Assembly: GCA_964651795.1 (NCBI GenBank)
Contig: CAZYWD010000001.1
Location: 1-27,815 of the forward strand
Direction: 5' to 3'
DNA from: an uncultured Muribaculaceae bacterium
GTDB taxonomy: Bacteria; Bacillota_I; Bacilli_A; RF39; UBA660
Length of the DNA: 27,815 nt
Shown: positions 4,874 to 25,020 of the stretch, one piece after another
How positions within the stretch are numbered: position 1 is the first letter of the stretch
Layout of the letters: every line of letters begins with the position of its first letter
Notes under the pieces: model-generated
Told to the model about the DNA's origin: nothing
Database searches by the model: none
The model's input: the letters and a program-made list of their open reading frames with translations, nothing else
Position numbers and translations under genes: made by a program

Positions 4874-4895
4874 CAAAAAAAAGGGGGGAAAAAAG

Positions 4896-5666: not shown

Positions 5667-5699
5667 AAAGTGTATTCTTTTTATTTTTTTTACCAAATA

Positions 5700-5728
5700 A
5701 TGACAATTTTTTTTATTCATGATACAAT
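5700..5728 (+). promoter_or_regulatory. Sigma-A-like promoter for the hybrid kinase
   Basis: ATGACA (5700-5705), 17 nt, TACAAT (5723-5728) with extended TG; supports a start at ATG 5766 rather than GTG 5670. Confidence 0.6.
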
Positions 5729-5765
5729 ACTGTTGTGTAGTATTTATATGAAGGGCGGATTAAAA

Positions 5766-8773: not shown

Positions 8774-10099
8774 ATGATGATGTATATGGATTTTAAAAAA
8801 ATTACTGTTGTTGGAGCTGGATATGTAGGATTAATAACTGGTCTATGTTTAGCCAAAGTAGGTCATAATGTTAAAATACTAGAGACTTCGAATGAAAAGA
8901 TAGAAAAATTAAAAAAAAGAATCTCTCCAATTAAAGAGGCTAAGGTGGGAGAGTTTTTAAGCGATAAATCTCTTAAAATAGAATTTTATGATGATCAATA
9001 TTTAGCTTACTCTAATACAGATATAATTATATTGTGTGTTGGTACTCCACAGAAAAAAGACGGATCAGCTAATTTAAAATTTATTTATGATGCTTGTGAA
9101 AAAATAGTTAATTACATAACTAAAGATTGTATAGTAATTATAAAATCTACTGTTCCTGTTGGAACAAACGATCTAATAGATTCTTATTTTAAAAGTAAAA
9201 ATATCAACTATAATATCACGATAGTAAGCAATCCAGAATTTTTATCACAAGGTACTGCTATATATGATACTTTTAATGCTTCACGGATAGTAGTAGGGTG
9301 TAATGATGATTATTCTAAGGAAGTTATGAAACAATTATATAAACCCTTTACGGATTCTCCATATAATATTCCACTATTGATTATGGATAGAAAAAGTGCG
9401 GAATTAGTGAAATATGCATCAAATTGTTTTTTAGCACTTAAAATATCATACATTAATGAAATAGCTAATTTATGTGATGCTTTAGACGTAAATGTAGATA
9501 ATGTTATTGACGGAATGAAATATGATACTAGAATTGGCAATCAATTTTTACGCCCGGGAATTGGTTATGGTGGAAGTTGCTTTCCAAAAGATACTAATGC
9601 ACTTCTAGATGTTGCAAAACACAATAATATAGAATTAAAAACGATAGATGCATGTATTCAGGTTAATGAAAATCAAAAATTGAAATTAATAGAAAAGATG
9701 CTTTCAAATGATGTTAGCTTAAATGGAATCAATATTGGAATATTAGGATTAAGTTTTAAAAAGAATACAGATGATATTCGAGAGTCACCAGCAATTGATA
9801 ACATTGAATATTTGTTGGAAAAAAATGCTTATATCACAGTTTTTGATACAATGTCAGTAGATAATATAAAGAAAGTTTTTGGAGAAAAAATTAACTATGC
9901 AAACGATCTTGATGACTTATTAAATAAGAAAGATATAGTTCTTATCTTAAATGACAATTATAATTTAGAAAATTTAACAATAAAGAAAATTAAGCAATTA
10001 ATGAAAAGTCCTATTATATATGATGGTCGAAATTGTTTTGATCCAAAAATAATGAAACAAAATGGAATAAAATATTATTCTATAGGAAGAGGTGTTTAG
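8774..10099 (+). CDS. ugd: UDP-glucose 6-dehydrogenase (start may be 8780 or 8786)
   Basis: GAGYVG, CVGTP, IKSTVPVGT, SNPEFL, KYASNCFLALKISYINE, GYGGSCFPKD, FKKNTDDIRESP, YDGRN. Confidence 0.95.
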   Translation: MMMYMDFKKITVVGAGYVGLITGLCLAKVGHNVKILETSNEKIEKLKKRISPIKEAKVGEFLSDKSLKIEFYDDQYLAYSNTDIIILCVGTPQKKDGSANLKFIYDACEKIVNYITKDCIVIIKSTVPVGTNDLIDSYFKSKNINYNITIVSNPEFLSQGTAIYDTFNASRIVVGCNDDYSKEVMKQLYKPFTDSPYNIPLLIMDRKSAELVKYASNCFLALKISYINEIANLCDALDVNVDNVIDGMKYDTRIGNQFLRPGIGYGGSCFPKDTNALLDVAKHNNIELKTIDACIQVNENQKLKLIEKMLSNDVSLNGINIGILGLSFKKNTDDIRESPAIDNIEYLLEKNAYITVFDTMSVDNIKKVFGEKINYANDLDDLLNKKDIVLILNDNYNLENLTIKKIKQLMKSPIIYDGRNCFDPKIMKQNGIKYYSIGRGV

Positions 10100-11797
10100 A
10101 TGGAGCGTAATGTATTAATCGATAAACTACAAGAACATATTATTAATAAAACCTGTGCAGAATTTGCAATCTTTGAGCTGGATAAAAATAAAATAAAAGA
10201 TAAAATTTCATATACTAAGTTTTATAATGAAGTTAAAAACAGGGGCGAAAAATTTAAAAGAATTGGTTTAAATAAAAGATGTTGTTTGCTATATTTACCT
10301 GCTGGTGTTGATTCGGTAGTAACTATATATGCCTGTTTTTATGCAGGGATAGTTCCTATTATAAAAACAATTGGAGAGTCTGTTGGGCAAGAAAAAATAG
10401 TAAATCAATTTCATGAAACAATAAATGATTTTTCGTTTATTGGAGCAGTTATTACAAATTTTGGAGAAGCATATTTAGAACAAATATGTGAAGAACGTTC
10501 TATAGCCTATATTAATACTAAAAAATTAGATGAAATCCCAAAGCTGGTAATTAAAGAACTTTCTTTTGATGATGCAGATATGATTATGCTAACTTCTGGA
10601 TCAACTAAAGCATCTAAAGGAATAAAACTTACTTTTGAGCAGTTAGAACAAAATATAATCTATTGTAAAAATATTTGGAATATTACTAATAAGTCAATTG
10701 GTTTAACTTGGATGCCTCATTCACATATATATGGAATATTAACAGGATTAATGATTCCATTATATACAGGAAGTACATCTTACGTAACAAGTCCAAAAGA
10801 TTTTTCAGATGATTGTAGTGTTTGGATAAGAAATCTTTCATTATATAGGATAACGCATACGCATGGAGCAGCATCTAATTTTGCATTAAAAAATAGTGTT
10901 ATTTTGTATGATTCAATGAATAAAAAAGATTTAGATCTTTCAAAATTAGAAGTGTTATCATTAGGTGGAGAGGCAGTTAATATTAATTTGCTTGATGAAT
11001 TTTATAATACATTTAATAAACATGGCTTGAAAAAAAGTTGCTTACTTCCAAATTGTGGAATGTCAGAAATAGCTGGGCTGTTAAGTGGAGTGGCTATTGG
11101 TGAAGAATTAGTAGTATTAAATTTAAATCAAGAAAAATTAAAAAATAATGAAATTGTTGAGAGTACAGATTCGGATAATTATCGAATTATCAGTGTTGGA
11201 AAAGTTCAAACAGATGAAGTTTTAATTTTGAAGCCAAATGAATATGAGAGCTTTGAGGATTTGAAAATTGGTGAAATAGTTATCTCTCCACCATCATTAA
11301 GCAATGGTTATGTTTCTGAATCGGATAATAGTAGTTTTGAATATTTACAAATAAATAATGAAAAACGAAAATTTTATAGAACGGGTGATTTAGGATTCTT
11401 ATTTAAGAGTAATCTGTTTATAACTGGTCGTATTAAGGAAGTTATTAAAATTAACGGAAAGAATATGTCACCTTATGAGATTGAAAGTTGCATAAACACT
11501 AATTTATCAAATGGACTTTTGGGTAATAATGTCGCCTTTTCAATTATAAAAAATTTCCAAGAAGAATTAGCAATTTTTCAAGAAGTGAGTGTATCTATGC
11601 CCCTGTTTGAAAAAGAACGGTTAAAAAAACAAATAATTGAAATTCTTTATACAAATTTACAAATTAAAGTAAAAAACGAAAATCTTATTATTTTAGATAA
11701 TACCAAAATTCCTAGAATGACAAATGGAAAAATAAGTCGTTTGGAATGTAGAAAAAAATATGATGAATTATTAGAAAGTGTGGTAGGGGTTGATTAA
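10100..11797 (+). CDS. Fatty acyl-AMP ligase-like adenylate-forming enzyme
   Basis: LTSGSTKASKG, WMPHSHIYG (cf. FAAL WLPxxHDMG), CGMSE, YRTGDLGF, ITGRIKEVIKINGKN, IPRMTNGKISRLECR. Confidence 0.8.
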   Translation: MERNVLIDKLQEHIINKTCAEFAIFELDKNKIKDKISYTKFYNEVKNRGEKFKRIGLNKRCCLLYLPAGVDSVVTIYACFYAGIVPIIKTIGESVGQEKIVNQFHETINDFSFIGAVITNFGEAYLEQICEERSIAYINTKKLDEIPKLVIKELSFDDADMIMLTSGSTKASKGIKLTFEQLEQNIIYCKNIWNITNKSIGLTWMPHSHIYGILTGLMIPLYTGSTSYVTSPKDFSDDCSVWIRNLSLYRITHTHGAASNFALKNSVILYDSMNKKDLDLSKLEVLSLGGEAVNINLLDEFYNTFNKHGLKKSCLLPNCGMSEIAGLLSGVAIGEELVVLNLNQEKLKNNEIVESTDSDNYRIISVGKVQTDEVLILKPNEYESFEDLKIGEIVISPPSLSNGYVSESDNSSFEYLQINNEKRKFYRTGDLGFLFKSNLFITGRIKEVIKINGKNMSPYEIESCINTNLSNGLLGNNVAFSIIKNFQEELAIFQEVSVSMPLFEKERLKKQIIEILYTNLQIKVKNENLIILDNTKIPRMTNGKISRLECRKKYDELLESVVGVD

Positions 11798-11798
11798 G

Positions 11799-12692
11799 AT
11801 GAAACGAGTTAGAACAATAACAGAAGATGGTATTAATTTGATTGGAATTAATTATATTAGTAAAGAAAATAATACCGAGTGGTGTTTGATATTTCCTGGA
11901 GTTGATGGAAATATTATAACGAATGATTTTATAGATAAACTCGGAAATTTTATAACTACTAAAGGATATAATTTTTTATGTTCTCATACAAGAGGTGCAT
12001 TTCAAATAATTAGTAGTAATTCTGCTTCAGAAAACGAAACTGGAAAAACAATTGGGTCAGCTTTTGAAAATTTTGATGACTGTATTTATGATATAAATGC
12101 TTGGATAGATTATGCTATTCAAAATGGTGCTGAAAATATAAATATAATATGTCACAGTCATGGATGTAATAAAATAATTTATTATCTTAGTCAAGACAAA
12201 TCAAGATACTCATATATCAATAAGGTTATATTTTTGTCTCCCCTAGATTTAATAACAAGAATGAATAAACGTAGAGAAGTTATTAATTTAATCGAAACAG
12301 CAACAAAGACAATCAAAGAAAACAAATATCCAGAATTAATAAACTGCGGTTTCTTTTATAAATCAAGTTCTAGTTTTCTAGATATGATGACCAATAAGAA
12401 TGTTGATAATTTTCCTTTTATGAGTGAAGATAATAAGCCGTTCTCAATGTTTAACTCGATTGAAAAAGATAAATTTATTATATATGGAGAGAGCGAAAAA
12501 AAATATTTAGATAAATTCAACGATAAAATGAAAATGATAGATAAAAATTTCTTAAAAGGTTTTTATATTATTAATCAAGCAAATCATATTTATCAGGAAA
12601 AAGAAGATGTATTATGTAATTATGTAATTTCAATTTTAACAAATAATATTGAAAATTTAGAAAATTTATTAGAAGGTAATTATGAATTTTAA
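11799..12692 (+). CDS. Alpha/beta-fold hydrolase or acyltransferase (DUF1749-like)
   Basis: Nucleophile elbow ICHSHGCN, oxyanion region FPGVDG, C-terminal ANH. Start ATG 11799 preferred (SD AGGGG) over TTG 11790. Confidence 0.75.
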   Translation: MKRVRTITEDGINLIGINYISKENNTEWCLIFPGVDGNIITNDFIDKLGNFITTKGYNFLCSHTRGAFQIISSNSASENETGKTIGSAFENFDDCIYDINAWIDYAIQNGAENINIICHSHGCNKIIYYLSQDKSRYSYINKVIFLSPLDLITRMNKRREVINLIETATKTIKENKYPELINCGFFYKSSSSFLDMMTNKNVDNFPFMSEDNKPFSMFNSIEKDKFIIYGESEKKYLDKFNDKMKMIDKNFLKGFYIINQANHIYQEKEDVLCNYVISILTNNIENLENLLEGNYEF

Positions 12693-13473
12693 AAAAATAA
12701 AATTTAGTGCTATTAATGATGAAATTGAAGAAACTATAGAAGATCAGGTTAAGTTATTAAAACAATTAAATATTGAATTTATTGAACTTAGAAAAATAAA
12801 TAATAAATATTTGCATGAATTAACACCTAATGAAGTGAAAACTATCTTTGATATATTAAGTCAAAATAAAATGACAGTATCTGTACTTGATTCACCATTA
12901 GGTAAAAAAGATTTTAGTAAAGAAAGATTTTGGAAAATATTTAATATATATTTAGTTTTATCCCAGCAATTTAAATCTAAATATATTCGTATCTTTCCAA
13001 TAAATGATAATCTTGAGAATAATATAAAAATTATGCAAAAAATGTCAAATATTGCAAAAGAGCATGATGTAATTTTGCTTGTAGAAAACGAGAAAAATAC
13101 ATTGACAGAAAAAGCAGATGTAATGCTAGATTTACTTAATAAAGTTAATGAAGAAAATGTACAAATGTTATTTGATGTAGAAAACTTTTATTTTTGTGAA
13201 GAAGATATGATAAAATCGTATGAGATGTTAAAAAAATTTGTTAAATGTATTCATTTAAGAGATTTTGACAAAGATAAAAATTTATACACAGTAATAGGTA
13301 ATGGAACACTAGATATTGATTATTTTATGAATTTGATATTGGATAATATAGATTTAAATAATTTATTTGTATCTTTTGAAACCCATTTGCCAATGAATAA
13401 TTTTGAAAAAAGTAAAAGAGAGTTGTTTATAGAAAATGTCAAAAATTGTAGAAAGTTTAGGTGGTATGAATGA
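12682..13473 (+). CDS. Sugar-phosphate isomerase/epimerase (xylose-isomerase-like TIM barrel)
   Basis: FSAINDEI...IELR, metal ligands LVENE, FDVEN, IHLRD, SFETH. Confidence 0.82.
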   Translation: MNFKKIKFSAINDEIEETIEDQVKLLKQLNIEFIELRKINNKYLHELTPNEVKTIFDILSQNKMTVSVLDSPLGKKDFSKERFWKIFNIYLVLSQQFKSKYIRIFPINDNLENNIKIMQKMSNIAKEHDVILLVENEKNTLTEKADVMLDLLNKVNEENVQMLFDVENFYFCEEDMIKSYEMLKKFVKCIHLRDFDKDKNLYTVIGNGTLDIDYFMNLILDNIDLNNLFVSFETHLPMNNFEKSKRELFIENVKNCRKFRWYE

Positions 13474-14939
13474 CAATTAATTTATATGCAAAAATAGAAG
13501 AGTTAGTAGAGCGGTTAAAGGTAAAAATTGATAGTAATTATAAGATTGAACATAACAGTAATGATAATATTATTCTTATTAGTAACAATATTAATATCAT
13601 AAAAATTAATTATAGAATGTGTGATTTGCCGATAAGAAGTTTTTCAAACCCTGTTTTTGCAAGTCAAAAGTATATATTACAAATTTCAAATAATAATAAT
13701 AGTTTACATGAAATATTTAATACAATTATTAATACATGTAACGAATATTCTGATGAGGAAATAATGGCAATTTTAAATGACATGCCTATTGCTGGTGATT
13801 ATTCCAAAGCCAATTCATCAGCTTTATCTGGAGTTGCAATAATTTGGAGAGATCATTTTTTGGAAGAAAATATAGGTTTGTTAAATGGTTTTGTTAACAT
13901 GGGTATTTCAAGAAATGATATTATGGCTTTAGATAAAGGCGATCAAACAAAACACCAAAATCAAATAAGAGCAACTTTTAAAAAGATGGGATTTATTGTC
14001 GATATATTAGATAACTCTGTTATAAATGATGATAATAAAATTGGACCTGAAGCTGATAAGATATACAATTTTATTGAAACTCGTAAAGATAAAAAAGTAT
14101 TAGTAATAGATGATGGGGCAATTGTATCAAAAATTTTAAATAATAAATATTATGATAATGTTAAAGCAATAGTAGAATTAACTGAAATGGGTTTGAGAAG
14201 AATTAGTCATTTAGAAAATGGGCTATTGTATCCTGTTTTAAACATTGCTAAAACTAATTTAAAGAGAAATATTACCTATCCAGAAATTGCAAATTCAATA
14301 TTTATAAGAGTTATTGAATTAATTGGTGGAGAAAAGTTAGTTGGACGATCTATATTGCTTTGTGGTTATGGGGATATGGGAGAAATATTAGCAGATAGAT
14401 TTAGAGCATTTGGTATTAGAGTAATTATTTACGATCCAGACATTATGAAATTGATTGTATCGGGGGAAAAAGGATATACTACCTACGATGATATTTTAAC
14501 TGCTGTAGTTGAAGAAAAACCAATTTTGGTAATAGGTGCTTCTGGGTACAAAAGTATAACGGATGAGGTGGTGAGAAGCCTACCAAATAATTCTTATGTT
14601 ACAGCCGGAGCAACTGCTGATTTATCTATATTTCTTGAATATGAAAAAGATCAAAATATTGAATTTAGAAGAGTTAAAAATTATGGAACTCAATATAGAA
14701 TAAATAGTAAATTTGTTACAGTACTAGGTAATGGAAGATCGGTTAATCTATTTGATTCTGAAGCAATACCTAATAAGGCAAATGATATATTCAAGGCAGC
14801 TATCCTAGTCACTTGTAATCAGGCAATTAACAGTAAAGAACATTTAAAAAATCAATTAGATGTTAATATTGTTGAATATTGGATTAATAAATCAGGCATC
14901 TTAAATAGTTATTATAATATGTATTTAAAAAGAAAATAA
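13470..14939 (+). CDS. Divergent S-adenosylhomocysteine-hydrolase-like NAD-binding protein with an extra N-terminal region
   Basis: IDDGA, VELTEMG, PVLNIAKTNLK, Rossmann GYGDMG, YDPD, GNGRSVNL, in SAHH order. Confidence 0.75.
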   Translation: MTINLYAKIEELVERLKVKIDSNYKIEHNSNDNIILISNNINIIKINYRMCDLPIRSFSNPVFASQKYILQISNNNNSLHEIFNTIINTCNEYSDEEIMAILNDMPIAGDYSKANSSALSGVAIIWRDHFLEENIGLLNGFVNMGISRNDIMALDKGDQTKHQNQIRATFKKMGFIVDILDNSVINDDNKIGPEADKIYNFIETRKDKKVLVIDDGAIVSKILNNKYYDNVKAIVELTEMGLRRISHLENGLLYPVLNIAKTNLKRNITYPEIANSIFIRVIELIGGEKLVGRSILLCGYGDMGEILADRFRAFGIRVIIYDPDIMKLIVSGEKGYTTYDDILTAVVEEKPILVIGASGYKSITDEVVRSLPNNSYVTAGATADLSIFLEYEKDQNIEFRRVKNYGTQYRINSKFVTVLGNGRSVNLFDSEAIPNKANDIFKAAILVTCNQAINSKEHLKNQLDVNIVEYWINKSGILNSYYNMYLKRK

Positions 14940-14941
14940 GG

Positions 14942-15469
14942 GTGGTGTTTAAAATAATATCATATCAATCTGATAAGTTTAAATTTAATTTTAGAGTTGC
15001 TATAGTTATATTAACTATGGATGGACTTAATATTTTAATTCATAAGAAACAAAATTCTGATTTCTGGATGCTTCCTGGTGGAAGGGTTGAGGAATTAGAA
15101 AATTCTAAAGATGCGATAATTAGGGAAACTAGAGAAGAATTAGGAATAAATATAAATCCTGTATTAAAAACAATATCTGAAAATTTTTTTGAATTAGAAA
15201 ATGTACAATATCATGAAATTTGTTTTTATTATAAAAGTATTAGTGATATAAAAAAAACAAACTATGAACAATTTAATGGTTTAGAAGGGAAATATTATAT
15301 TTTTAAATGGATCAAGATTTCGGAAATTAATAATTACTTAATTTATCCTAGTTATCTTGTGGAAATGCTAAAAGATAGCTCAGGACAAATAGTTCATAAA
15401 ATTGACAATAAGTTAGGAGGTTTTAATAAAAATGAAGGACATGCATATACACGTACGAAAAGGAATTGA
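14942..15469 (+). CDS. NUDIX hydrolase
   Basis: Nudix box GGRVEELENSKDAIIRETREELGI. Confidence 0.93.
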   Translation: MVFKIISYQSDKFKFNFRVAIVILTMDGLNILIHKKQNSDFWMLPGGRVEELENSKDAIIRETREELGININPVLKTISENFFELENVQYHEICFYYKSISDIKKTNYEQFNGLEGKYYIFKWIKISEINNYLIYPSYLVEMLKDSSGQIVHKIDNKLGGFNKNEGHAYTRTKRN

Positions 15470-16097
15470 AGATGTTGAAATCTTGCAACAATATGTAATT
15501 AAATGTATTAATTGCAATTTAACTGAAGTACTTTTATTAGATCATGGCAATAGAATATCTCCAAAACATCAAGCAGTATTATATAACGATGATGTAATAA
15601 TCAAATTTAAGAAAAATATAGATAAAGTAAGAAGAGAATATCCTAATATAAAAATAAATTATGGCATAGAGATAGATTTTTCATATGATAACGATTTTAG
15701 AAAAGAAACTCTAAACTTAATACAAATAGGTAATTTCGATTATGTTATTGGTGCAATTCATAGTATTCAATTTACCGATGGATTAGATTATTTTAAAGCG
15801 ATTTTAAATATGATTGAAAATTACCCAATAGATATTATTGGACATATAAAGTTGCGTGATGATTGGGAAAAATATAAAGTGATACTTGAAGAAATTGTAA
15901 GTAAAAGTAGTCAAAAGAAAATTATGATTGAAATAAATACTAGTGATAGATCAATTTGGAATTTGGAACAATTACAATTTATGCTCGATTTATTTAAAAA
16001 GTATAATAATGAATTTACAATCGGATCAGATGCTCACAGTATTGATGAAATAGGTTATAAGGTTGAAAAAACACATAAGTTGTTAAGGAAGATATAA
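15432..16097 (+). CDS. PHP-domain phosphoesterase (histidinol-phosphatase-like)
   Basis: DMHIH, LDHG, GIEID, IGAIH, IIGH, IEINTS, GSDAH; SD AGGAGG. Confidence 0.88.
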   Translation: MKDMHIHVRKGIEDVEILQQYVIKCINCNLTEVLLLDHGNRISPKHQAVLYNDDVIIKFKKNIDKVRREYPNIKINYGIEIDFSYDNDFRKETLNLIQIGNFDYVIGAIHSIQFTDGLDYFKAILNMIENYPIDIIGHIKLRDDWEKYKVILEEIVSKSSQKKIMIEINTSDRSIWNLEQLQFMLDLFKKYNNEFTIGSDAHSIDEIGYKVEKTHKLLRKI

Positions 16098-17134
16098 TGG
16101 AGTTATATATATTACATGCAGGATTAACACATCCGAGTCCTTATATTTATAATTTATATAATGAACTTAAATCATACGAGGATATTGAAGTTACTGTAAA
16201 GCCAAATTTACCTGAATATGCATCACCCAAAACTGGAATAATTTATTTTAATCGATTAAAGAGATTCTATGATAGTAAAGATATGAAATCTGCTTTAGAG
16301 TTTATTGAAAAAATAAAAATTATTAAGAGTAAAGGTTGGAAGATTGTTTGGACAATCCATACTTTTTTTCCAATTGATAGAAATATTACTGATGTTGATG
16401 AGTTTATTGTTAGAGAGTTTATCAATAATACTGACTTATTATTTACACTAACTGAATATATGCAAGACTCAATAAAGAAAAATTATAATAGAGAATCAAT
16501 TGTTCATTATATGGGAATTAACGCACTAGATAATCAATTTAATAACGATGTAGTAAATTTAAATTTCTTACCTAACAATGCTTTTCTATTTTCTTTTGTC
16601 GGGAATATTTATAAATATAAAATGGTTGAGGAAATTATATCAAACTTCAATAAACTTAATAATCCAAACAGTTTTTTATTGATAGCAGGTTGTGAAGCAT
16701 CAAATAGCAAAACTAATGTCGATGATTTGATAAAAACAAATAAAAACATAATACGTATACCATTTTTTATTGGTGATCGAGATTGGAATAAAATTATTGA
16801 AAGAACAAATGTATTTTTGAATATTTATAATTTAGATTTACCTGCTTTTAAACATGGTTTTTTTCCATCCAATTGTGTAAAGTTATCTTCTTATAAAAGA
16901 TGTGTTATTTCTCCTAAAAGTCCAATAATAGAAGAATTAATGGATAATAATGCTTTGCTACTTTATGATTTTAGAGATCCTAATGGTCTATATAATATTA
17001 TGAAGTTTTCATTAGAACACAAAGAAATGATAAAAAATAGAGAAGAGCTTATAAAAAATGTTAGTTATAGTTGGAAAGAAACTACAAAAATTTTTGTTGA
17101 AGGATTAAGAAAGTTGGATATAAATGAAGAATGA
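16097..17134 (+). CDS. GT-B fold glycosyltransferase, GT4-like
   Basis: KIVWTIHTFFP, FVGNIYKYKMVEEII, LLIAG; resembles GT4 enzymes of the GumI type (recalled); the EX7E region is degenerate. Confidence 0.7.
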   Translation: MELYILHAGLTHPSPYIYNLYNELKSYEDIEVTVKPNLPEYASPKTGIIYFNRLKRFYDSKDMKSALEFIEKIKIIKSKGWKIVWTIHTFFPIDRNITDVDEFIVREFINNTDLLFTLTEYMQDSIKKNYNRESIVHYMGINALDNQFNNDVVNLNFLPNNAFLFSFVGNIYKYKMVEEIISNFNKLNNPNSFLLIAGCEASNSKTNVDDLIKTNKNIIRIPFFIGDRDWNKIIERTNVFLNIYNLDLPAFKHGFFPSNCVKLSSYKRCVISPKSPIIEELMDNNALLLYDFRDPNGLYNIMKFSLEHKEMIKNREELIKNVSYSWKETTKIFVEGLRKLDINEE

Positions 17135-17933
17135 AAAAACGGTAAAGGTAAATTATAGTATAATTAGTAGGGGTACAGAAAAATACAATAATCATGGTTA
17201 TATGGGAGTAAGCGAGATTGCTAATAATAGTCAATATATTTTAAATATAGATCATGGTATATTGGAAAGTGAAATTAATGATCAAATATTAATTTTTAAA
17301 GGTGGTTATTCAATATATAATATAGCATTCACAAGGTTTGAACTAATAACAGCTATAATGTATAAACATAACAAACTTAATTTTGATGATAAAATTGTTA
17401 TTTTTGGTTTAGGAAATATTGGGATTAGTTGTCTTGTGTATTTGTTAGATATGGGATATCAAGATATAACAGTAGTTGTTAAAGAAGAGAAAGAATTCTT
17501 TTCAAAATTAAAAATATTAAAAGAAAATTACAAGCAATCAAATGTGAACATTCAATTATATAACAATTATTTAGAGAATAATTTTACTCAAAATATTTAT
17601 ATTGATACAACTGGTAGTTCAGATGTCTTAGAGAAAATTTTTAATAGTATAAAAGTAAATAGTACTATTGTTATATTAAGTACGCCTAGAAATAGTGCAT
17701 TTAAAATAGATCCGTTGTTAATAAATCGAGAAAATTTAAAAATATATGGAGGACACGAATTAAATGGAATAGATAAGGGTTTAAGACAGCAACTTTTTGA
17801 AGAATTATTAAGAAAAAATGAATCAAAACTATTTTTGGAAAGTATTGTTTCTATTCATCAATATAGTGAAGAAATTTTAAATAATATTTTAATACATAAA
17901 CAAAATTTTATTGATGTATTAAAATATGAATGA
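17124..17933 (+). CDS. Shortened MDR (zinc-type alcohol dehydrogenase-like) oxidoreductase
   Basis: YSIISRGTE, GYMGVS, Rossmann IVIFGLGNIG, IDTTG; 269 aa. Confidence 0.65.
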   Translation: MKNEKTVKVNYSIISRGTEKYNNHGYMGVSEIANNSQYILNIDHGILESEINDQILIFKGGYSIYNIAFTRFELITAIMYKHNKLNFDDKIVIFGLGNIGISCLVYLLDMGYQDITVVVKEEKEFFSKLKILKENYKQSNVNIQLYNNYLENNFTQNIYIDTTGSSDVLEKIFNSIKVNSTIVILSTPRNSAFKIDPLLINRENLKIYGGHELNGIDKGLRQQLFEELLRKNESKLFLESIVSIHQYSEEILNNILIHKQNFIDVLKYE

Positions 17934-17948
17934 TAGTGGGAGGTATGT

Positions 17949-18788
17949 ATGAAAGAACCATTTGATCTTCATGTTCATTCAACTTTATCGGATGGGTTGA
18001 AAACAAGACAGGAGTTATTAGAGTATGCAAAAAAATTAAAATTCAAGGCCCTTAGTTTTGCAGATCATAATGTTAGCGGAATTGAAGGATGGAATGATTT
18101 AGTTAATCAAACTGGAAATATGATTTTAATACCTGGTATTGAAATTGATTGTGGTATTCCAACTAGAATGCATATTTTGGGGTATTACTTAACCGATGGT
18201 AATAAGCTCGATAAAACATTTCAAGAAAATAATATGGAAAATGAATATAGATGTAGAGAGGTAATTAAAAATCTAAATCGATTATACAATTTTAATATAA
18301 CAGAAAAAGATATTGATAAATTTAAAAATGTATATTTGACAAAGAGGGATATTATATCTATCTTATTTGATAAAAAAATTATAAATGATGTTTATGAAGC
18401 AACATGCAAATATATAGGTGAAAAAACACCAGATTATATTCCTATGAAAAAAATGACTGCAAAAGAAGCTATTAATTTAATCAGAGATAGCGGAGGAATT
18501 CCAGTTTTAGCCCATCCGGTTACAATTTATAGGGATAAAACAATAGAAAAGTTTGAACCACTACTTAAAGAATTAATTAATTATGGATTGCTTGGCTTGG
18601 AATTAGTAAATCTTCGAGAGGGAACTTCTTTCTTTGAGTATTTTTTATTAATGGCAAAAAAATACAAATTAATAACAACAGCAGGTTCAGATTTTCATAG
18701 ATTTGAAAGAGATACTTTTGGTGTAAATATGGAAGCAGACGATTTATTATACCCACTAGTAGAACTAGGAAAGAGTAATAAAAGATGA
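17949..18788 (+). CDS. PHP-domain protein (TrpH/YciV-like phosphoesterase)
   Basis: DLHVHSTLSDG, ADHN, GIEID, HILGY, GGIPVLAHP, GLE, AGSDFH. Confidence 0.9.
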   Translation: MKEPFDLHVHSTLSDGLKTRQELLEYAKKLKFKALSFADHNVSGIEGWNDLVNQTGNMILIPGIEIDCGIPTRMHILGYYLTDGNKLDKTFQENNMENEYRCREVIKNLNRLYNFNITEKDIDKFKNVYLTKRDIISILFDKKIINDVYEATCKYIGEKTPDYIPMKKMTAKEAINLIRDSGGIPVLAHPVTIYRDKTIEKFEPLLKELINYGLLGLELVNLREGTSFFEYFLLMAKKYKLITTAGSDFHRFERDTFGVNMEADDLLYPLVELGKSNKR

Positions 18789-19588
18789 TTAAGACAGCAT
18801 ATTTAATAAAAAATACTATATTATTTATAGAAAATAATATAGTAGAATACGATGACCAAATTAATTCTAGAATGGTAATGTTTGATGAGGTAGAATATAA
18901 AAATGATATAAAAAATTATATAATATTGAATTATGATTTTGTTAATGTTAATATAAATAGTGTAGTATATAAAATAAATAAAAAACTAGAAAAAACAGAT
19001 TTGTTTCCATTATTAAATAATGTAATTTCAAATATTATTAATGATGATAATAATATTTATATGCATTCAAGTATAATTAGTAAGAATGGACAAGGTATTT
19101 TACTTATTGGTGATTTTGGTCAAGGAAAAACAACGTTAGGATTGATTGCAGAAAAATATGGTTATGATATTAACTCTGCAGATCAAAGTTGGCTTACGAC
19201 TATAAATAAAAAGTTAATAATGACTAAAGGATCAAGATATTTAAAATATGAAACTAAGGAAAATTTATTGAATAAAGAAAAAACAAATCAACCTATTGAG
19301 ATAAAAAAAATACTTTTATTATATGGATTGTGTGAAAACGGAACTGTTGAAGAAACACCTATAAATAATAATCAACATATAATAAAAAAATTATTTCCTT
19401 ATGCTAATTGGCATAGCAGTATTCCTTTATTTACTGATAATCAAATGCTGTATGTTAATAGTTATTGTATTAAATCATTTTTAGAAAAATTAATTGAAAG
19501 CAACACCACGACCTCAATAATAAGAGGTGATGTTAATAATATAATGAAATATTTAAAAAGAAAAGAAGAGGAGAATATATTATGCTAG
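18785..19588 (+). CDS. HPr-kinase-related P-loop kinase
   Basis: MHSSII...ILLIGDFGQGKTT...SADQ follows the HprK-related pattern (H...GxxGxGKS/T...DD). Confidence 0.65.
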   Translation: MIKTAYLIKNTILFIENNIVEYDDQINSRMVMFDEVEYKNDIKNYIILNYDFVNVNINSVVYKINKKLEKTDLFPLLNNVISNIINDDNNIYMHSSIISKNGQGILLIGDFGQGKTTLGLIAEKYGYDINSADQSWLTTINKKLIMTKGSRYLKYETKENLLNKEKTNQPIEIKKILLLYGLCENGTVEETPINNNQHIIKKLFPYANWHSSIPLFTDNQMLYVNSYCIKSFLEKLIESNTTTSIIRGDVNNIMKYLKRKEEENILC

Positions 19589-20610
19589 AAAAAAGTGTTT
19601 TTACCGAAGAAACAATAAAAGAAGTATTAAACCAATTATATGCTATTAGAGAAGTACAAAACATCAGTAAGATAGAAAGAGGAAGTGCTAATATATATGA
19701 AATAAAAACAAATTTAAATCATTATATATTAAAAGAATTTCAGTCAAGATATAGTTCAGAAGAAATAAAAAAAGAAATAGATGTAATAAATCATTTAAAT
19801 AAAAAAGGTATTGCAGTTCCTGTGTATGTGATGACTAAAAATGGTGATTATAGTTTTATATACGAAGGAAAAACTGTAATATTACAAGAATTTATTGAAG
19901 GATATACTATTGAACAAAATTCTGGCAATTATGATCAGACAATTGAATCAGCGAAAAATTTAGCCTTGATAGTAAAGGCATTAGAAGATTTTTCATATCA
20001 GTTACCGGGTGGTATTGTATCTAATTGGTATAGTGAAGCTACATTTGATAGTAGTATTAAGAAATATAAGGATTTAATGTCTTTAATTCCTCAAGATGAA
20101 ATTGGGAATAAAATTAAAGCAGATTTTGAAGAAAAAATATCTATGATTGAAGATATTAAAAAGAATCTTAATACCTCAGAGATGGATAAAGTGACATATA
20201 AAAATACTCATGGTGATTACAGTATGATGCAATTTATTTATAAAGATGGAAAAATTAATGCGACAATTGACTTTGTAGCTGCATCATATATGCCAATTGT
20301 ATGGGAAATTGTTAGGTCATATAGTTATATTGATAAAGATTGTATAGAGGGTAATTTTAATATGCCTCATTTCATTGACTACGTCAAAGAATTTAATAAG
20401 TATGTTGAATTAAATGATTACGATTTAAAATATATGGTATATATTTATTTAGTGCAATTAGTTAACAGCAATTATGGATACAAGCAATATATATATGATA
20501 ATGAAAAAGTTGATCTACTTAATTTTGGATTTCTTCGCACTAAAATTTGTAGATATTTATATAATAATGCAAAGGAAATTTCTGATAAATTAATAGAAGA
20601 ATTAAGATAA
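19582..20610 (+). CDS. APH / homoserine-kinase-type II phosphotransferase
   Basis: YILKEF (ATP Lys), Brenner motif THGDYS, IDF. Confidence 0.85.
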   Translation: MLEKSVFTEETIKEVLNQLYAIREVQNISKIERGSANIYEIKTNLNHYILKEFQSRYSSEEIKKEIDVINHLNKKGIAVPVYVMTKNGDYSFIYEGKTVILQEFIEGYTIEQNSGNYDQTIESAKNLALIVKALEDFSYQLPGGIVSNWYSEATFDSSIKKYKDLMSLIPQDEIGNKIKADFEEKISMIEDIKKNLNTSEMDKVTYKNTHGDYSMMQFIYKDGKINATIDFVAASYMPIVWEIVRSYSYIDKDCIEGNFNMPHFIDYVKEFNKYVELNDYDLKYMVYIYLVQLVNSNYGYKQYIYDNEKVDLLNFGFLRTKICRYLYNNAKEISDKLIEELR

Positions 20611-20613
20611 ATT

Positions 20614-21600
20614 ATGAAAGATGTAATAATAATAGGGACAGGAAAAGCAGCACATTTACACTATAATTCATATAAAAAAATAACTAATTTAGGTAAACTT
20701 TATTTTGTAGATAAATATAAAGTTAATTCTAAATTTTTGGACTATGATATATACGAAAGCATTGATGAAGTGTTAACTACTAATAATATAAATGTAAAAA
20801 ATGTAATAATAGATGTCTGCACACCACGATCTCAGTTTGAAACCATTATTGACAAATGTATGAGCTTATCATTAAATAATATAATTGTGGAAAAGCCTTT
20901 TATTGTGTCAAGTAATTATTTTGACAATAAAGAAGATTTAAATATAAGGATGATTGAAAATTATTTGTATTCTAAAATAACAACTTTTTGTAAAAAATTT
21001 ATATCAAAAAACAATCTGAAAATAAATTCAATCTATAGTAATTTTTCTAAAAATAGAATAGTAGATAGCGGGAATGGTAGGGCAATGCATAATAATTCTA
21101 TACCTACAGTTTTTGAAATAGAAATGCCACATCAAATTTATTTGACAAATTATTTTGTTGATAGTGATACTAATATTAATGTTAGATATATTGATTCCAA
21201 AGCTATGATAATAGATGATAAAAAATTAAGTAGACACGGATATGGAATTATTTTTGCAGACAAAAATAATACAAATATTATTTATGAGAGTGATCTTACT
21301 AGTAATACTCTACAAAAAAAATTAATACTAGTCTGTAATAATGGAATATCAATATCGTTAGAATATATTCTGTATGATCTTGATATGAATAAGATTAAGG
21401 ATGGGACAATTGCCATTTTTCAAAATAATAAATTAATAAAACACTATATAATTGATGAGGATGATATGATGTTTTATTGTATACAGGAATATTATATAAA
21501 ATTATCAAATAATGAGAAGTTTTATAGCTCAAAAAAAGATATTGTTGATTTTTCTACTGAGATAAATAGATATATAAATTATGCGAGTTTAAATGACTAA
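20614..21600 (+). CDS. Gfo/Idh/MocA-family NAD(P)-dependent oxidoreductase
   Basis: IIGTGKAA, IDVCTP, IIVEKP, EMPHQI. Confidence 0.8.
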   Translation: MKDVIIIGTGKAAHLHYNSYKKITNLGKLYFVDKYKVNSKFLDYDIYESIDEVLTTNNINVKNVIIDVCTPRSQFETIIDKCMSLSLNNIIVEKPFIVSSNYFDNKEDLNIRMIENYLYSKITTFCKKFISKNNLKINSIYSNFSKNRIVDSGNGRAMHNNSIPTVFEIEMPHQIYLTNYFVDSDTNINVRYIDSKAMIIDDKKLSRHGYGIIFADKNNTNIIYESDLTSNTLQKKLILVCNNGISISLEYILYDLDMNKIKDGTIAIFQNNKLIKHYIIDEDDMMFYCIQEYYIKLSNNEKFYSSKKDIVDFSTEINRYINYASLND

Positions 21601-22612
21601 TGATAATTATTTTTTTAGTATAATTGTAACTGTATATAATAATTCGAAATATATTGAAAAATGTTTAGATTCAATAATTCCTTATTTAAAATCAAATTAT
21701 GAACTTATTATTGTTAATGATGGTTCGACAGATAATAGTTTAAAACTATGTAAGGAAAAAATTAAAAATATTTCTAATTGCTCAATTATTAGTCAATTAA
21801 ATGGTGGTGTTTCATCAGCTCGTAATGTTGGTATAAAATCATCAAGTGGAGAATATTTGATTTTTATTGATGGAGATGATTGGATATTTGGGAATGTTTT
21901 TTGTGAGTTGGAAAGATGCATATCAAACGCAAACCCTGATTTTGTATTAATGAATACAATAAAATATATTGAAAAAGATAATAATTATATAGTTGAAAAA
22001 ATGTTTTTTCCCGATGATTTACAGCTTGTTGAAAAAAATTTATATAATTTGATAAATAATAAAGTTTTTGGAAGGGCATGGCGTTTTATAGTATCAAAAA
22101 AATTAATTAATAAAGAGGTGCTTTTATTTCATGAAGGATTAATTTTTGAAGATGAAGAGTGGTCAATAAAATTAGTTTTATCTTCTCGAAATATGTTGTA
22201 TTTCAATCAAAATTATTATGTGTATCGCAAAACCAATAATACAATTACATCCTCAAAAACATTTGAAAAATACTTAGATTTATTAGAAATTACTATTTCC
22301 AGTTATAACTGGTGTCTAGAACGTGATCTGACTATTAATCAAAAAAGGTATTATAGAAAATTATTATTTAGATGTATCAGAAATATTTATGGAAGTTATA
22401 CAAAATTTTCCAATGAACAAAAAAAATATATTAAGAAATGGAATAAGGGACATCAAGATATTATAAGCGATATATTGTTATGTAATTTATCACTTTTCTT
22501 TCTAGCAAAATTTATAAGTCCTATATATTTGTTTAAACTATACAAAAGCATAAAACATAGACATACTAAAAAAGACTATATACGATTAGAAGAAAGTAAA
22601 GAAGTAATATAA
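21593..22612 (+). CDS. Family 2 glycosyltransferase
   Basis: SIIVTVYN, VNDGSTD, NGGVSSARNVG, FIDGDD, FED. Confidence 0.93.
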   Translation: MTNDNYFFSIIVTVYNNSKYIEKCLDSIIPYLKSNYELIIVNDGSTDNSLKLCKEKIKNISNCSIISQLNGGVSSARNVGIKSSSGEYLIFIDGDDWIFGNVFCELERCISNANPDFVLMNTIKYIEKDNNYIVEKMFFPDDLQLVEKNLYNLINNKVFGRAWRFIVSKKLINKEVLLFHEGLIFEDEEWSIKLVLSSRNMLYFNQNYYVYRKTNNTITSSKTFEKYLDLLEITISSYNWCLERDLTINQKRYYRKLLFRCIRNIYGSYTKFSNEQKKYIKKWNKGHQDIISDILLCNLSLFFLAKFISPIYLFKLYKSIKHRHTKKDYIRLEESKEVI

Positions 22613-22650
22613 AAAGCAAAAGAAAATTAATTCTTTTGCTTTTGTTTTTT
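22612..22650. terminator. Bidirectional intrinsic terminator between the 14-gene operon and the nucleotidyltransferase
   Basis: Perfect 13-bp stem AAAAGCAAAAGAA (22612-22624) / TTCTTTTGCTTTT (22631-22643), loop AATTAA, T-rich tail. Confidence 0.85.
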
Positions 22651-22653
22651 TAG

Positions 22654-23421
22654 TTAGGCTAACTTTATTCTATAATTAGTAAGGTTTAATTGTGTTGTTT
22701 TCGTTATATAATTAAAAATTGAAATAATAATACTTATTTTTTCAGCATTATTTAAATGCTCATCAATTGCTTTCAAATACAAATCAACAAATTCTTTTTC
22801 AGGAATAGTTTTATGAATTGCATTTCTATATCCCTTTGTGTCGGTATATAATTTATATACTTTGTTGGATGTTAATTTTGTAAACCCTTGCATTTGATGA
22901 TAAAGCCTTTGAATTTTTTCAATGGTTATATGATAAAAATGATTAAAATAAGGGTTACTATTTTCTAACATTTCTTGAAGTTGACATATATAATCGTAAA
23001 TTACTGTTAGTCTTTCTTCAATTTTTTCAATACTAATTTCAGGAAAGGGAAGAGAAAAGCACTCCTTTATATGTTCTTGAAGTTTTATTATTTCTCCATT
23101 TCTATCATAAATAATTTTTCCATATCCAATAATACTTAACAAAGCATTATCCTGATTTTTAAAATCTTTTGGTACGCTATTATAAATATAATCTAACGAT
23201 TTTTCTATATAATCAATTTTCATACCATCTATAATAGTCGAACCTTTTATAACCATAAAGTTAACACAATTTTTATATATTATATGCAAGTCTAAATCTG
23301 ATTTATCAGTATTAAATCCAGTAGAAAAACTTCCATATAAAACAATGCCTTCAACATTATCATTATTAAGGTAATCCATTTTTTGAATAAATTTATTTAA
23401 AATTTTATTGTAGTCTAACAT
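22654..23421 (-). CDS. Pol-beta-superfamily nucleotidyltransferase with a helical C-terminal domain
   Basis: LYGSFSTGFNTDKSDLDL (GS...DxD) and IDY. Start ATG 23421 preferred (SD AAAGGTGG). Confidence 0.85.
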   Translation of the reverse strand: MLDYNKILNKFIQKMDYLNNDNVEGIVLYGSFSTGFNTDKSDLDLHIIYKNCVNFMVIKGSTIIDGMKIDYIEKSLDYIYNSVPKDFKNQDNALLSIIGYGKIIYDRNGEIIKLQEHIKECFSLPFPEISIEKIEERLTVIYDYICQLQEMLENSNPYFNHFYHITIEKIQRLYHQMQGFTKLTSNKVYKLYTDTKGYRNAIHKTIPEKEFVDLYLKAIDEHLNNAEKISIIISIFNYITKTTQLNLTNYRIKLA

Positions 23422-23448
23422 AAATATTTCCACCTTTTATTAATGATT

Positions 23449-24741: not shown

Positions 24742-25020
24742 ATGTTGAATAAAGAAGCAATTAAGAATCATCTAAATTATTTGAAAAACAATAAATTTTC
24801 AATGGAATTTTATATTGCATTATTACTTTATGATATGTCAATAGTGGAATCTAACAAAGTTATAGATAAAAACATTTCATGGAATATACAAAAAATGTTT
24901 GATGACATGTATAAAAAAGATTTAAGAGATAAAATTAAACAAAATAAAAATCTAAAAAATAAAAAAATAGAAAAAAGTGTAAATGAAACTAAAGAAATTG
25001 ATTTTGAGGTAGATGTATGA
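24742..25020 (+). CDS. Hypothetical protein (92 aa) translationally coupled to the sortase
   Basis: SD AGGAAAGG; ATGA overlap with the next gene. Confidence 0.65.
   Translation: MLNKEAIKNHLNYLKNNKFSMEFYIALLLYDMSIVESNKVIDKNISWNIQKMFDDMYKKDLRDKIKQNKNLKNKKIEKSVNETKEIDFEVDV

Follow-up and report, generated by a model that had tools for sequence, protein, structure and literature searches.

Organization of the operon

The stretch of DNA analyzed in this study (the window) is the entire 27.8-kb contig CAZYWD010000001.1, which belongs to an uncultured bacterial genome bin of 788 kb (53% complete; 24% G+C), and the subject of the analysis is an operon of 14 genes within it. The GC content of the window was 24.7%, compared with 23.7% for the remainder of the bin, and the tetranucleotide correlation between the two was 0.90. 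A first-pass annotation, made from the sequence alone, had described a biosynthetic operon of 14 co-oriented genes that ended in a single hairpin. This description was borne out by the open reading frame (ORF) listing, in which exactly 14 plus-strand ORFs spanned positions 8774 to 22612 (Table 1), and by the detection of the terminal hairpin as the sole plus-strand terminator-like structure between positions 8400 and 23600. Nine of the 13 gene junctions were overlaps of 1 to 38 nt and the other four had gaps of 0 to 15 nt. The earlier statement that no overlap or gap exceeded 15 nt held for 12 junctions but not for the NUDIX/PHP junction, where the overlap was 38 nt; both of these gene ends look real because the HxH motif of the PHP protein lies at residues 5 to 7. 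Catalytic motifs were intact in Ugd, the NUDIX hydrolase, both PHP proteins, the HprK-like protein, the APH-family kinase, the Gfo-like oxidoreductase, the TIM barrel and the alpha/beta hydrolase. These results indicated that the 14-gene operon is real and intact.

The domain labels given in the first-pass annotation nearly all held in Pfam, NCBIfam, PDB and fold searches, with the medium-chain dehydrogenase/reductase (MDR)-like, HprK-like and GT4-like labels resting on weaker evidence. None of the 14 products was a multi-pass membrane protein, and the only hydrophobic segment detected was at the C terminus of the GT2 glycosyltransferase. Pfam and NCBIfam searches of all window ORFs of at least 80 amino acids (aa) detected no flippase (Wzx), polymerase (Wzy), ABC exporter, priming transferase, aminotransferase, polyketide synthase (PKS) or nonribosomal peptide synthetase (NRPS) module or carrier protein. 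The defining features of a standard capsule or PKS/NRPS cluster were thus tested and absent, in agreement with the earlier opinion that the operon was neither. Overall, the sequence data supported the view of the operon as a coherent, anabolic unit.

Table 1. Predicted products of the operon, its terminator and the convergent neighboring gene
Feature	Position	Strand	Length (aa)	Predicted product or class	Evidence
g01	8774-10099	+	441	Ugd, NDP-sugar (UDP-glucose-type) 6-dehydrogenase	Three UDPG_MGDP_dh Pfam domains
g02	10100-11797	+	565	FAAL-like acyl-adenylate-forming enzyme	Pfam AMP-binding, 2.4e-27
g03	11790-12692	+	300	DUF1749-type alpha/beta hydrolase	Pfam DUF1749, 3.5e-7
g04	12682-13473	+	263	Xylose-isomerase-like TIM barrel; core	Pfam AP_endonuc_2 (PF01261), 56.9 bits (cutoff, 31.1)
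g05	13470-14939	+	489	Divergent SAH-hydrolase-fold NAD enzyme; core signature gene	N-terminal extension of ~90 aa
g06	14942-15469	+	175	NUDIX hydrolase; variable member	Pfam NUDIX, 1.5e-10
g07	15432-16097	+	221	PHP phosphoesterase, HisJ-like; core	Pfam PHP, 4.5e-12
g08	16097-17134	+	345	GT4-like GT-B glycosyltransferase; type A accessory	Pfam Glycos_transf_1, weak, 1.9e-4
g09	17124-17933	+	269	Truncated MDR/Zn-dependent alcohol dehydrogenase-like NAD(P) dehydrogenase; core	Weak Pfam/NCBIfam signals; GLGNIG at 95
g10	17949-18788	+	279	PHP phosphoesterase, nucleoside-bisphosphate-phosphatase/RNase RNM type	Pfam PHP, 8.2e-7
g11	18785-19588	+	267	HprK-like P-loop protein; core	Walker A GDFGQGKT, invariant
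g12	19582-20610	+	342	APH-family kinase; core	Pfam APH (PF01636), 9.9e-10, 39 bits (cutoff, 23.2)
g13	20614-21600	+	328	Gfo/Idh/MocA-like oxidoreductase; core	Pfam GFO_IDH_MocA (PF01408), 9.4e-5, 23.5 bits (just under the cutoff of 24.0)
g14	21593-22612	+	339	GT2 glycosyltransferase; type A accessory	Pfam Glycos_transf_2, 2.2e-28
Bidirectional terminator-like hairpin	22612-22643	both		Common to the operon and the convergent gene	13-bp stem, T-run on each strand
Convergent gene	22654-23433	-	259	Pol-beta-type nucleotidyltransferase	Pfam Polbeta/NTP_transf_2

Composition and distribution of the cluster family

More than 120 metagenomic homologues of the S-adenosylhomocysteine hydrolase (SAHH)-fold protein g05 were found at 47 to 62% identity, and when 1.84 billion representatives, from a library clustered at 50% identity, were searched with a profile, 113 members of the family were detected at an E value of ≤1e-30. 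Gene-by-gene comparisons were performed on the neighborhoods of a sample of these homologues, which included nine further low-GC loci. The TIM barrel, SAHH-fold, PHP, MDR-like, HprK-like, APH and Gfo-like genes occurred together in loci L002, L003, L009, L010 and L011 and in a second type of locus, type B (L004 to L008). These core genes recurred despite a shuffled order, usually joined by Ugd, whose gene accompanied the core in 8 of 10 low-GC loci, the window among them. The window holds all seven of the family-defining genes in one co-oriented block.

Two arrangements were distinguished among the low-GC loci. Type A, comprising the window, L002 and L003 (both from metagenome-assembled genomes [MAGs] of uncultured Bacilli), L009 and L010, contains the genes for Ugd, the FAAL-like enzyme, the DUF1749 hydrolase, the GT4-like protein, the TIM barrel, the SAHH-fold protein, the MDR-like protein, PHP, the HprK-like protein, APH, the Gfo-like protein and GT2, in an order that differs between loci. 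The closest relative of the window is L009, which is collinear with it at 63% identity; this locus appears to be decaying, with a truncated DUF1749 hydrolase gene (7715-8290) and split GT4-like (12120-13150) and GT2 (17602-18622) genes, while its core is intact. Type B was found in Clostridia-type MAGs on contigs of 12 to 664 kb and has the order 195-aa protein, NUDIX, APH, PHP, 354-aa HprK-like protein, TIM barrel, SAHH-fold protein and PHP-MDR fusion, followed by HprK-like, APH, Gfo-like, short-chain dehydrogenase/reductase and Ugd genes, with no glycosyltransferase. In L011, the core is compressed into eight genes by fusions of an HprK/PEPCK-like domain to APH and of an HprK-like domain to the TIM barrel. 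A more distant locus, L017 (35% GC), still links a Gfo-like gene, two HprK-like genes, APH and the SAHH-fold gene.

Natural fusions were also detected between the TIM barrel and the SAHH-fold protein (family members P0063 and P0121), between the SAHH-fold and Gfo domains (L014 of Streptomyces, P0134, P0149 and P0154), between PHP and the MDR-like domain in the type B loci and between GT2 and the Gfo-like protein in L010. Six independent kinds of fusion join core members. The fusions and the synteny provide strong evidence that the core members act in one pathway. The FAAL-like, DUF1749 hydrolase, GT4-like and GT2 genes travel together and only in type A, and on this comparative evidence they are a lineage-specific tailoring set; the NUDIX gene and g10, the nucleoside-bisphosphate-phosphatase-like PHP, are variable members. 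The notion of a single 14-gene unit was therefore upheld in part: a core of seven to eight genes is conserved across phyla, but the 14 genes are not invariant, since the tailoring set is lineage specific and the NUDIX and second PHP genes vary. Judged by gene content, the cluster is a modular family and not a single invariant unit.

A reduced form of the core was also present on plasmids of Streptomyces. Nine Streptomyces plasmids were the only plasmid matches to the SAHH-fold protein (30 to 32% identity), and three of these were examined. In NBC_01724 and NBC_01216 (L014 and L015), a 907-aa fusion of the SAHH-fold and Gfo domains is preceded by an HprK-like gene, a gene annotated as an AP endonuclease (TIM barrel) and an APH kinase gene, while in the Streptomyces clavuligerus plasmid (L013), HprK-like and TIM barrel genes lie upstream of a 568-aa SAHH-fold gene. 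The TIM barrel was recognized from the record annotation in L014 and L015 and from a Pfam match in L013. The core-bearing plasmids are large (0.34 to 1.8 Mb), and the Streptomyces variants contain no glycosyltransferase. Lack of co-conservation had been named in the first-pass annotation as grounds for abandoning the operon as a unit; synteny of the core in the low-GC loci and on the Streptomyces plasmids indicated that the genes are co-conserved, and this objection falls away.

Predicted enzymes and genetic setting

The SAHH-fold protein has a Pfam NAD domain (4.6e-10) with a GYGDMG motif at residue 299, and an AF2 model of high confidence (pLDDT, 89.3) displayed the two domains of the SAHH fold, including a Rossmann domain for NAD binding. 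All of the top 50 Foldseek matches were SAHH or SAHH-like proteins (about 400 aligned columns; 17 to 20% identity; TM, 0.6 to 0.7). The scores nevertheless fell under the equivalog cutoffs, with 65.6 versus 497.6 bits for TIGR00936 and 59.5 versus 275 bits for NF004005. The active-site pocket was read from a HMMER alignment to the cyanobacterial SAHH 7zd8 combined with the invariant columns of 30 homologues, with the equivalent of His55 left out. The GYGDxG NAD site, the aspartates of DDG, E236 (in ELTEMG versus EETTTG) and K265 were invariant, whereas FDN was invariantly replaced by T-Y270, GHFD by G-A-T382-A-D and HPS by I433-P-N. In human SAHH numbering, we take the retained positions to be Asp131, Glu156 and Lys186. 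The four substrate-pocket positions that this protein lacks would be Asp190, Asn191, His301 and His353, the last of which contacts adenine. By both score and predicted pocket residues the protein is not a canonical SAHH; because of the replaced pocket residues, the extra N-terminal domain and the low TIGR00936 score, its substrate is probably not adenosine-like.

The TIM barrel gene was present in eight further low-GC loci, and residues E135, D165, H191 and E233 were invariant among eight orthologues; by their order and spacing we presume that these resemble the metal-binding tetrad of ketose 3-epimerases. Profile matches were obtained to Art22, AsbF, IolI and ketose 3-epimerases, together with weak matches to IolE, IolI and IolO. 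The core PHP protein g07 has an HxH motif at its N terminus and a TIGR01856 score of 64 bits, under the cutoff; its orthologues, 47 to 58% identical, were found in seven loci, and in type B the protein is fused to the MDR-like domain (484 aa). For g10, the best NCBIfam match was to 3′,5′-nucleoside bisphosphate phosphatase (2e-29; 103 bits versus a cutoff of 400), with orthologues in L009, L010, L011 and the type B loci. The MDR-like protein gave no Pfam match below 0.001, is orthologous to the C-terminal half of the PHP and Glu_dehyd_C fusion and was placed by Atlas features with clusters of Zn-dependent alcohol dehydrogenases. Its gene adjoins the SAHH-fold gene in L018. In the same locus, a Cap15-like gene (221-760; CBASS effector type) was observed directly before the SAHH-fold gene, which is 40% identical to that of the window.

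The HprK-like protein gave weak matches to TIGR00679 (16 versus 240 bits) and PF07475 (13.5 versus 33.3 bits) and a PDB profile match to HprK at E values of 0.015 to 0.06, while weak Hpr_kinase_C/ScmC signals were detected and Atlas features placed it with ScmC/HPr(Ser) kinase clusters at 0.96 to 0.97. Orthologues were free genes in seven loci and fused to the TIM barrel in L011, with a weaker match in L017. In the APH-like kinase, K51, E65, H210-G-D212, Q217 and D230-F231 were invariant in 11 orthologues and paralogues, all 11 of which have a catalytic loop of HGDxxxxQ, with the invariant Gln at Q217, instead of the usual HxDxxxxN. A sequence search of the PDB detected nothing beyond a marginal match to homoserine kinase. 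Orthologues of the kinase, 40 to 65% identical, were present in seven loci, and more distant copies were found in L011, where the kinase is joined to an HprK/PEPCK-like domain, in L017, where the gene is frameshifted, and in Streptomyces (20 to 21% identity). The Gfo-like protein has invariant GxGxxA, EKPF and FSKNR..S...R motifs and a PDB profile match to the Gfo-family structure 3hnp (1.6e-4).

The remaining genes would supply or tailor the product. Ugd matched its three Pfam domains at E values of 1e-27 to 1e-51 and TIGR03026 at 409 bits (cutoff, 190), and it carries the catalytic-Cys motif GGSCFPKD at residue 266; the best equivalog was TuaD at 426 bits, under the cutoff of 700. The FAAL-like protein gave no AMP-binding_C match in Pfam and scored about 180 to 190 bits with NCBIfam FAAL subfamilies, under their cutoffs. 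Its nearest solved relatives were all FAALs (3kxw at 5e-48, the FAAL domains of PKS proteins, FadD32 and FadD23), and orthologues of about 31% identity were found in L002, L003 and L010. With regard to a FAAL-primed PKS/NRPS or lipopeptide system, no PP-binding, ketosynthase or condensation domain was detected in the window and the FAAL-like protein is stand-alone. In the DUF1749 protein, at the family level a Ser-His hydrolase, the H122-S123-x-G125 elbow and N265-H266 were invariant, and orthologues were present in L002, L003 and, truncated, in L009. The NUDIX hydrolase has an intact Nudix box at residues 47 to 68; its orthologue was found in L011 (37% identity), with weaker similarity to NUDIX genes of L004 and L007 and no orthologue in L002, L003, L009 or L010. 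The GT4-like protein had no sequence match in the PDB, even by profile, and its AF2 model had a pLDDT of 65; the top Foldseek matches were all GT-B/GT4 enzymes (GlgM, MshA, SenB, BshA and PimA), and orthologues were present in L002, L003 and L010 and split in L009. GT2 has one hydrophobic segment at residues 290 to 314, and its orthologues were found in L002 and L003, split in L009 and fused in L010.

The setting of the operon was examined for evidence of mobility. A C5 methyltransferase gene lies at one end of the window and a large serine recombinase gene (26086-27687) at the other. In L003, a serine recombinase (18834-20447) that is 50% identical to that of the window lies about 3 kb beyond the GT2 gene, and the occurrence of these similar recombinases downstream of both clusters suggests that related integrative elements carry the cluster as cargo. 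The contig ends had no common terminal repeat, and the contig was therefore not read as a closed circle. The SAHH-fold gene was found in none of 40 relatives (32 of high quality), in none of 398 high-quality genomes sampled across the phylum and in no phage record. Metagenomes of bioreactors and of wastewater, generated in several studies, contained window DNA; no RNA run did. These sequence comparisons suggested that the cluster is horizontally acquired mobile cargo. Carriage of the core by large plasmids in Streptomyces, and by an element with a serine recombinase in bacteria from bioreactors, suggests a specialized trait that can be transferred, as opposed to a housekeeping function.

Some neighboring genes may be connected with the cluster. 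The Pol-beta-type nucleotidyltransferase has a 50% identical orthologue in L009 (18636-19406) directly after GT2 and on the same strand, and because of this arrangement it may be functionally part of the cluster, rather than an unrelated MNT or resistance gene. On the upstream side, a HAD-ANL fusion, a PlsC-like acyltransferase and a hybrid histidine kinase are encoded on the same strand (2429-8624); these were rejected as cluster members, as they were unlinked to the cluster in every other locus examined, and they appear to be separate cargo. Between positions 23977 and 25760, two ORFs without a Pfam match (180 and 92 aa) are followed by a sortase gene (25017-25760), 2.4 kb downstream of the operon, and the three genes may together constitute a small module for surface proteins on the element that carries the operon. 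A 500-aa ankyrin-repeat protein is encoded after the cluster in L003 (15720-17222). Among members of the SAHH-fold family, P0039 carries a fused class II aldolase domain, and in the distant members P0191, P0260 and P0264 (E values of 1e-27 to 1e-37) the fusion partner is PRTase-CE, a STAND/AAA-type ATPase or HTH_17. The latter architectures resemble those of conflict or defense proteins more than those of metabolic enzymes; PRTase-CE has been discussed in a survey of retrons (PMC13712802).

Proposed pathway, alternatives and known systems

The reading that we favor, and to which we assign about an even chance, is that the operon is an intact, horizontally acquired member of an uncharacterized modular cluster family and directs synthesis of a specialized small-molecule glycoconjugate. 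Production of a UDP-uronic acid by Ugd, most likely UDP-glucuronate, would be the first step and is well supported. In a second step, the core would remodel a scaffold of sugar, cyclitol or ribosyl type by repeated rounds of four reaction types. The APH-like and HprK-like kinases would add phosphates, the Gfo-like, MDR-like and SAHH-fold enzymes would carry out oxidations with NAD, the TIM barrel would use a metal to isomerize, epimerize or dehydrate a keto-sugar and the PHP enzymes would remove phosphates, with cleavage of a nucleoside-diphosphate linkage by NUDIX in some variants. The SAHH-fold enzyme would most likely use a tightly bound NAD to oxidize its substrate transiently beside a C-H bond, as SAH hydrolase and AgmF do, and could so expel or exchange a beta-substituent in a redox-neutral manner, for which a phosphate installed by one of the kinases is a plausible leaving group. 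In this lineage, the GT4-like and GT2 enzymes would then glycosylate the scaffold and the FAAL-like enzyme and DUF1749 hydrolase/acyltransferase would acylate it. The resulting acylated glycoside would remain in the cytoplasm or membrane or exit by a non-dedicated route. Two of the three cluster variants, type B and that of Streptomyces, lack the tailoring set with its glycosyltransferases, and no locus has a dedicated flippase or polymerase; on these grounds the core probably makes a small molecule and not a polymer. The nearest folds of the GT4-like protein include the small-acceptor GT4 enzymes MshA, BshA, GlgM and SenB, and this was counted in favor of a small-molecule product.

Several observations weigh against this reading. 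A longer HprK/PEPCK-like paralogue (about 310 to 355 aa) is present in L002 to L004, L006, L007, L009, L010, L011 and L017, which are all nine of the other low-GC loci, and the window alone among the 10 lacks it. In L009, this gene (9011-9979) lies between the TIM barrel and SAHH-fold genes, whereas in the window these two genes overlap by 4 nt (13470-13473), and a search with the L009 protein did not find the paralogue elsewhere in the 53%-complete genome. As this gene is missing, the end product of the window copy of the cluster might differ or might not be formed at all. The family calls for the HprK-like, MDR-like and GT4-like proteins are weak and all under curated cutoffs, the order of the GT4 enzymes in the Foldseek results comes from the model with a pLDDT of 65, and Pfam and NCBIfam searches of the window ORFs gave neither a carrier protein for the FAAL-like enzyme nor an exporter for the operon. 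At the profile level, the correspondence with Streptomyces is weak for the TIM barrel, for which profile-profile comparison with the window family produced no match, and for the Gfo-like protein (13% probability, with an FxKxRxxDSxxGR motif common to both); the HprK-like proteins were matched at 46% probability in the P-loop region only. Beyond the family-level assignments, the enzymatic steps are those that we infer.

The leading alternative is an envelope decoration, in which the operon would produce a uronic-acid glycolipid or a teichuronic-acid-like surface glycan and depend on general lipid carriers and export functions of the host for transport. The best NCBIfam names of three products (TuaD, 426 bits; TuaG, 2e-15; TuaC, 3e-5) point in this direction, but all of the Tua matches were far under the equivalog cutoffs. 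The combination of Ugd, two glycosyltransferases and a FAAL-like enzyme, the hydrophobic C-terminal segment of GT2 and the appearance of PimA, a lipid-acceptor GT4, among the fold matches of the GT4-like protein are also consistent with an envelope product, as are the sortase gene downstream and the presence in the host of Mur ligases and penicillin-binding proteins, from which it is taken to be walled. Against these stand the absence of a priming transferase, flippase, polymerase, ABC exporter or LCP ligase from the window and related loci and the retention of the core without any glycosyltransferase in the type B and Streptomyces variants, while the patchy, mobile distribution would be unusual for a structural component of the envelope. 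We consider an envelope glycan or glycolipid unlikely and favor a small-molecule product over it; the other explanations are less likely still.

Phosphoglycosylation of a peptide or protein, in which the HprK-like protein would phosphorylate a Ser/Thr hydroxyl and the transferases would build a sugar on the phosphate, as in lasso peptides, appears very improbable. The only characterized non-HPr members of the HprK family found in the literature searched do phosphorylate peptide Ser, and in pseudomycoidin a nucleotidyltransferase adds hexoses after phosphorylation by an HprK homologue (PMC8498205). By its Atlas features the HprK-like protein lies close to ScmC, a member of a cassette for peptide modification, and a nucleotidyltransferase is linked to the cluster in the window and L009, but it is missing from most loci; no precursor peptide, recognition element of ribosomally synthesized and posttranslationally modified peptides, lasso maturase or radical-SAM maturase was detected in any locus examined, and the fusions of HprK-like domains to a sugar-type TIM barrel and to the APH kinase in L011 point to small-molecule metabolism. 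There is little more to recommend a catabolic, salvage or detoxification island acting on an external nucleoside, glycoside or aminoglycoside-like compound. Enzymes that inactivate antibiotics are known from the APH, NUDIX and Pol-beta nucleotidyltransferase families, sets of kinases, isomerases, dehydrogenases and phosphatases typify sugar and inositol catabolism (compare the weak Iol matches of the TIM barrel), the cluster is on mobile DNA and one family member carries a class II aldolase domain. However, the operon and most related loci have no transporter, substrate-binding protein or pathway regulator, Ugd, the two glycosyltransferases and the adenylating enzyme are anabolic, and the pairing of kinases with phosphatases is characteristic of biosynthetic routes through phosphorylated intermediates. 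A conflict or defense module that acts by a nucleotide-derived toxin or nucleotide depletion, against phages or other bacteria, seems similarly improbable. Such a module would be in keeping with mobile islands that have DNA methylase, helix-turn-helix regulator, MNT-like nucleotidyltransferase and RhuM/Fic genes nearby, with the Cap15 gene beside one relative and with the conflict-type fusions of SAHH-fold proteins, but those fusions are limited to distant members outside the clade of the window and phage records lacked the SAHH-fold gene. A PADLOC scan of 10 cluster proteins returned a generic NUDIX match only, and assignment to a known defense system was rejected; a pathway of 10 to 14 enzymes with Ugd and glycosyltransferases is also unlike known defense systems.

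The literature searched contained no characterized pathway or paper matching this gene combination, which constitutes absence of evidence only and agrees with the earlier remark that the combination was not recognized. The cluster family is previously undescribed and occurs in Firmicutes and on Streptomyces plasmids. A tentative extension of the small-molecule reading, which we rate as possible and as less probable than that reading itself, is that the clusters encode a new pathway spanning Bacillota and Actinomycetota, in which a kinase-primed, NAD-dependent elimination or rearrangement by the SAHH-fold enzyme and action of the HprK family on small molecules, for the first time, would yield a new sugar- or nucleoside-derived scaffold that is then glycosylated and acylated on this element. 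If the favored model holds, the core would represent an orphan pathway, with seven or more enzymes, that is common in metagenomes and absent from the sampled reference genomes and searched literature, and three families would have unexpected roles: an SAHH fold without the adenine pocket, an HprK-like protein in sugar chemistry and an APH kinase with an altered catalytic loop. The eight-gene variant of L011 and the six fusions would be a good start for expression and in vitro reconstitution.

Comparison with known systems produced partial likenesses. The tuaABCDEFGH operon of Bacillus subtilis shares with the window a combination of Ugd (TuaD-like), GT4-like (TuaC-like) and GT2 (TuaG-like) genes in one operon, which implies a supply of UDP-glucuronate, but the window lacks the TuaA priming transferase, the TuaB flippase, the TuaE polymerase and TuaF, and 10 of the 14 genes have no tua counterpart. 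Assignment as a tua, Wzx/Wzy or ABC capsule locus was rejected, as priming, export and polymerase/chain-length genes were not detected in the window. In routes to small glycosides (mycothiol, MshA/MshA2; bacillithiol, BshA; maltose-1-phosphate, GlgM; sucrose-phosphate synthase/phosphatase), a GT4 enzyme and a phosphatase handle phosphorylated acceptors. The nearest folds of the GT4-like protein belong to this group, and in the operon, too, glycosyltransferases stand alongside kinases and dedicated phosphatases; against this, there was no detectable sequence similarity, the model is of low confidence and the SAHH-fold, TIM barrel, Gfo-like, MDR-like and HprK-like proteins are unrelated to those pathways. 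A likeness to the inositol and keto-sugar enzymes (IolG; IolE, IolI, IolO and ketose 3-epimerases) is provided by the Gfo-type Rossmann domain with its EKP motif and by the AP_endonuc_2 TIM barrel with four invariant positions, but the matches were weak (E values of 1e-5 to 1e-8), no other iol gene, transporter or regulator was present and the context is anabolic.

HprK and its homologues in lasso-peptide clusters resemble g11 in the P-loop GDFGQGKT and the weak Hpr_kinase_C/ScmC similarity, and the pseudomycoidin clusters also have a neighboring nucleotidyltransferase (PMC8498205). The score of g11 was nonetheless far under the cutoff, and no gene for an HPr-type or peptide substrate was nearby. 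Fusion of the domain to the TIM barrel or APH in relatives suggests a small-molecule substrate, which would be new for the HprK family.

The closest precedent for the SAHH-fold protein is AgmF of angustmycin biosynthesis, an SAHH-type enzyme that does not hydrolyze SAH and instead dehydrates a ketohexofuranosyl nucleoside by means of a tightly bound NAD (PMC8599513). This is an example of an SAHH-type enzyme performing nonhydrolytic sugar chemistry within a biosynthetic cluster. The two-domain fold, the GxGxxG NAD site, the DDG Asp and equivalents of the Glu and the catalytic Lys are retained in g05, whereas AgmF, at 34% identity (PMC8599513), is far nearer to canonical SAHH than is g05 (17 to 20%) and SAHH lacks the extra N-terminal domain of about 90 aa. 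By analogy, the enzyme probably resembles SAHH chemically, with a tightly bound NAD and transient oxidation of a sugar-type alcohol. On the basis of these comparisons, the operon was classified as a putative sugar- or nucleoside-tailoring biosynthetic operon with an uncharacterized core that extends across phyla.

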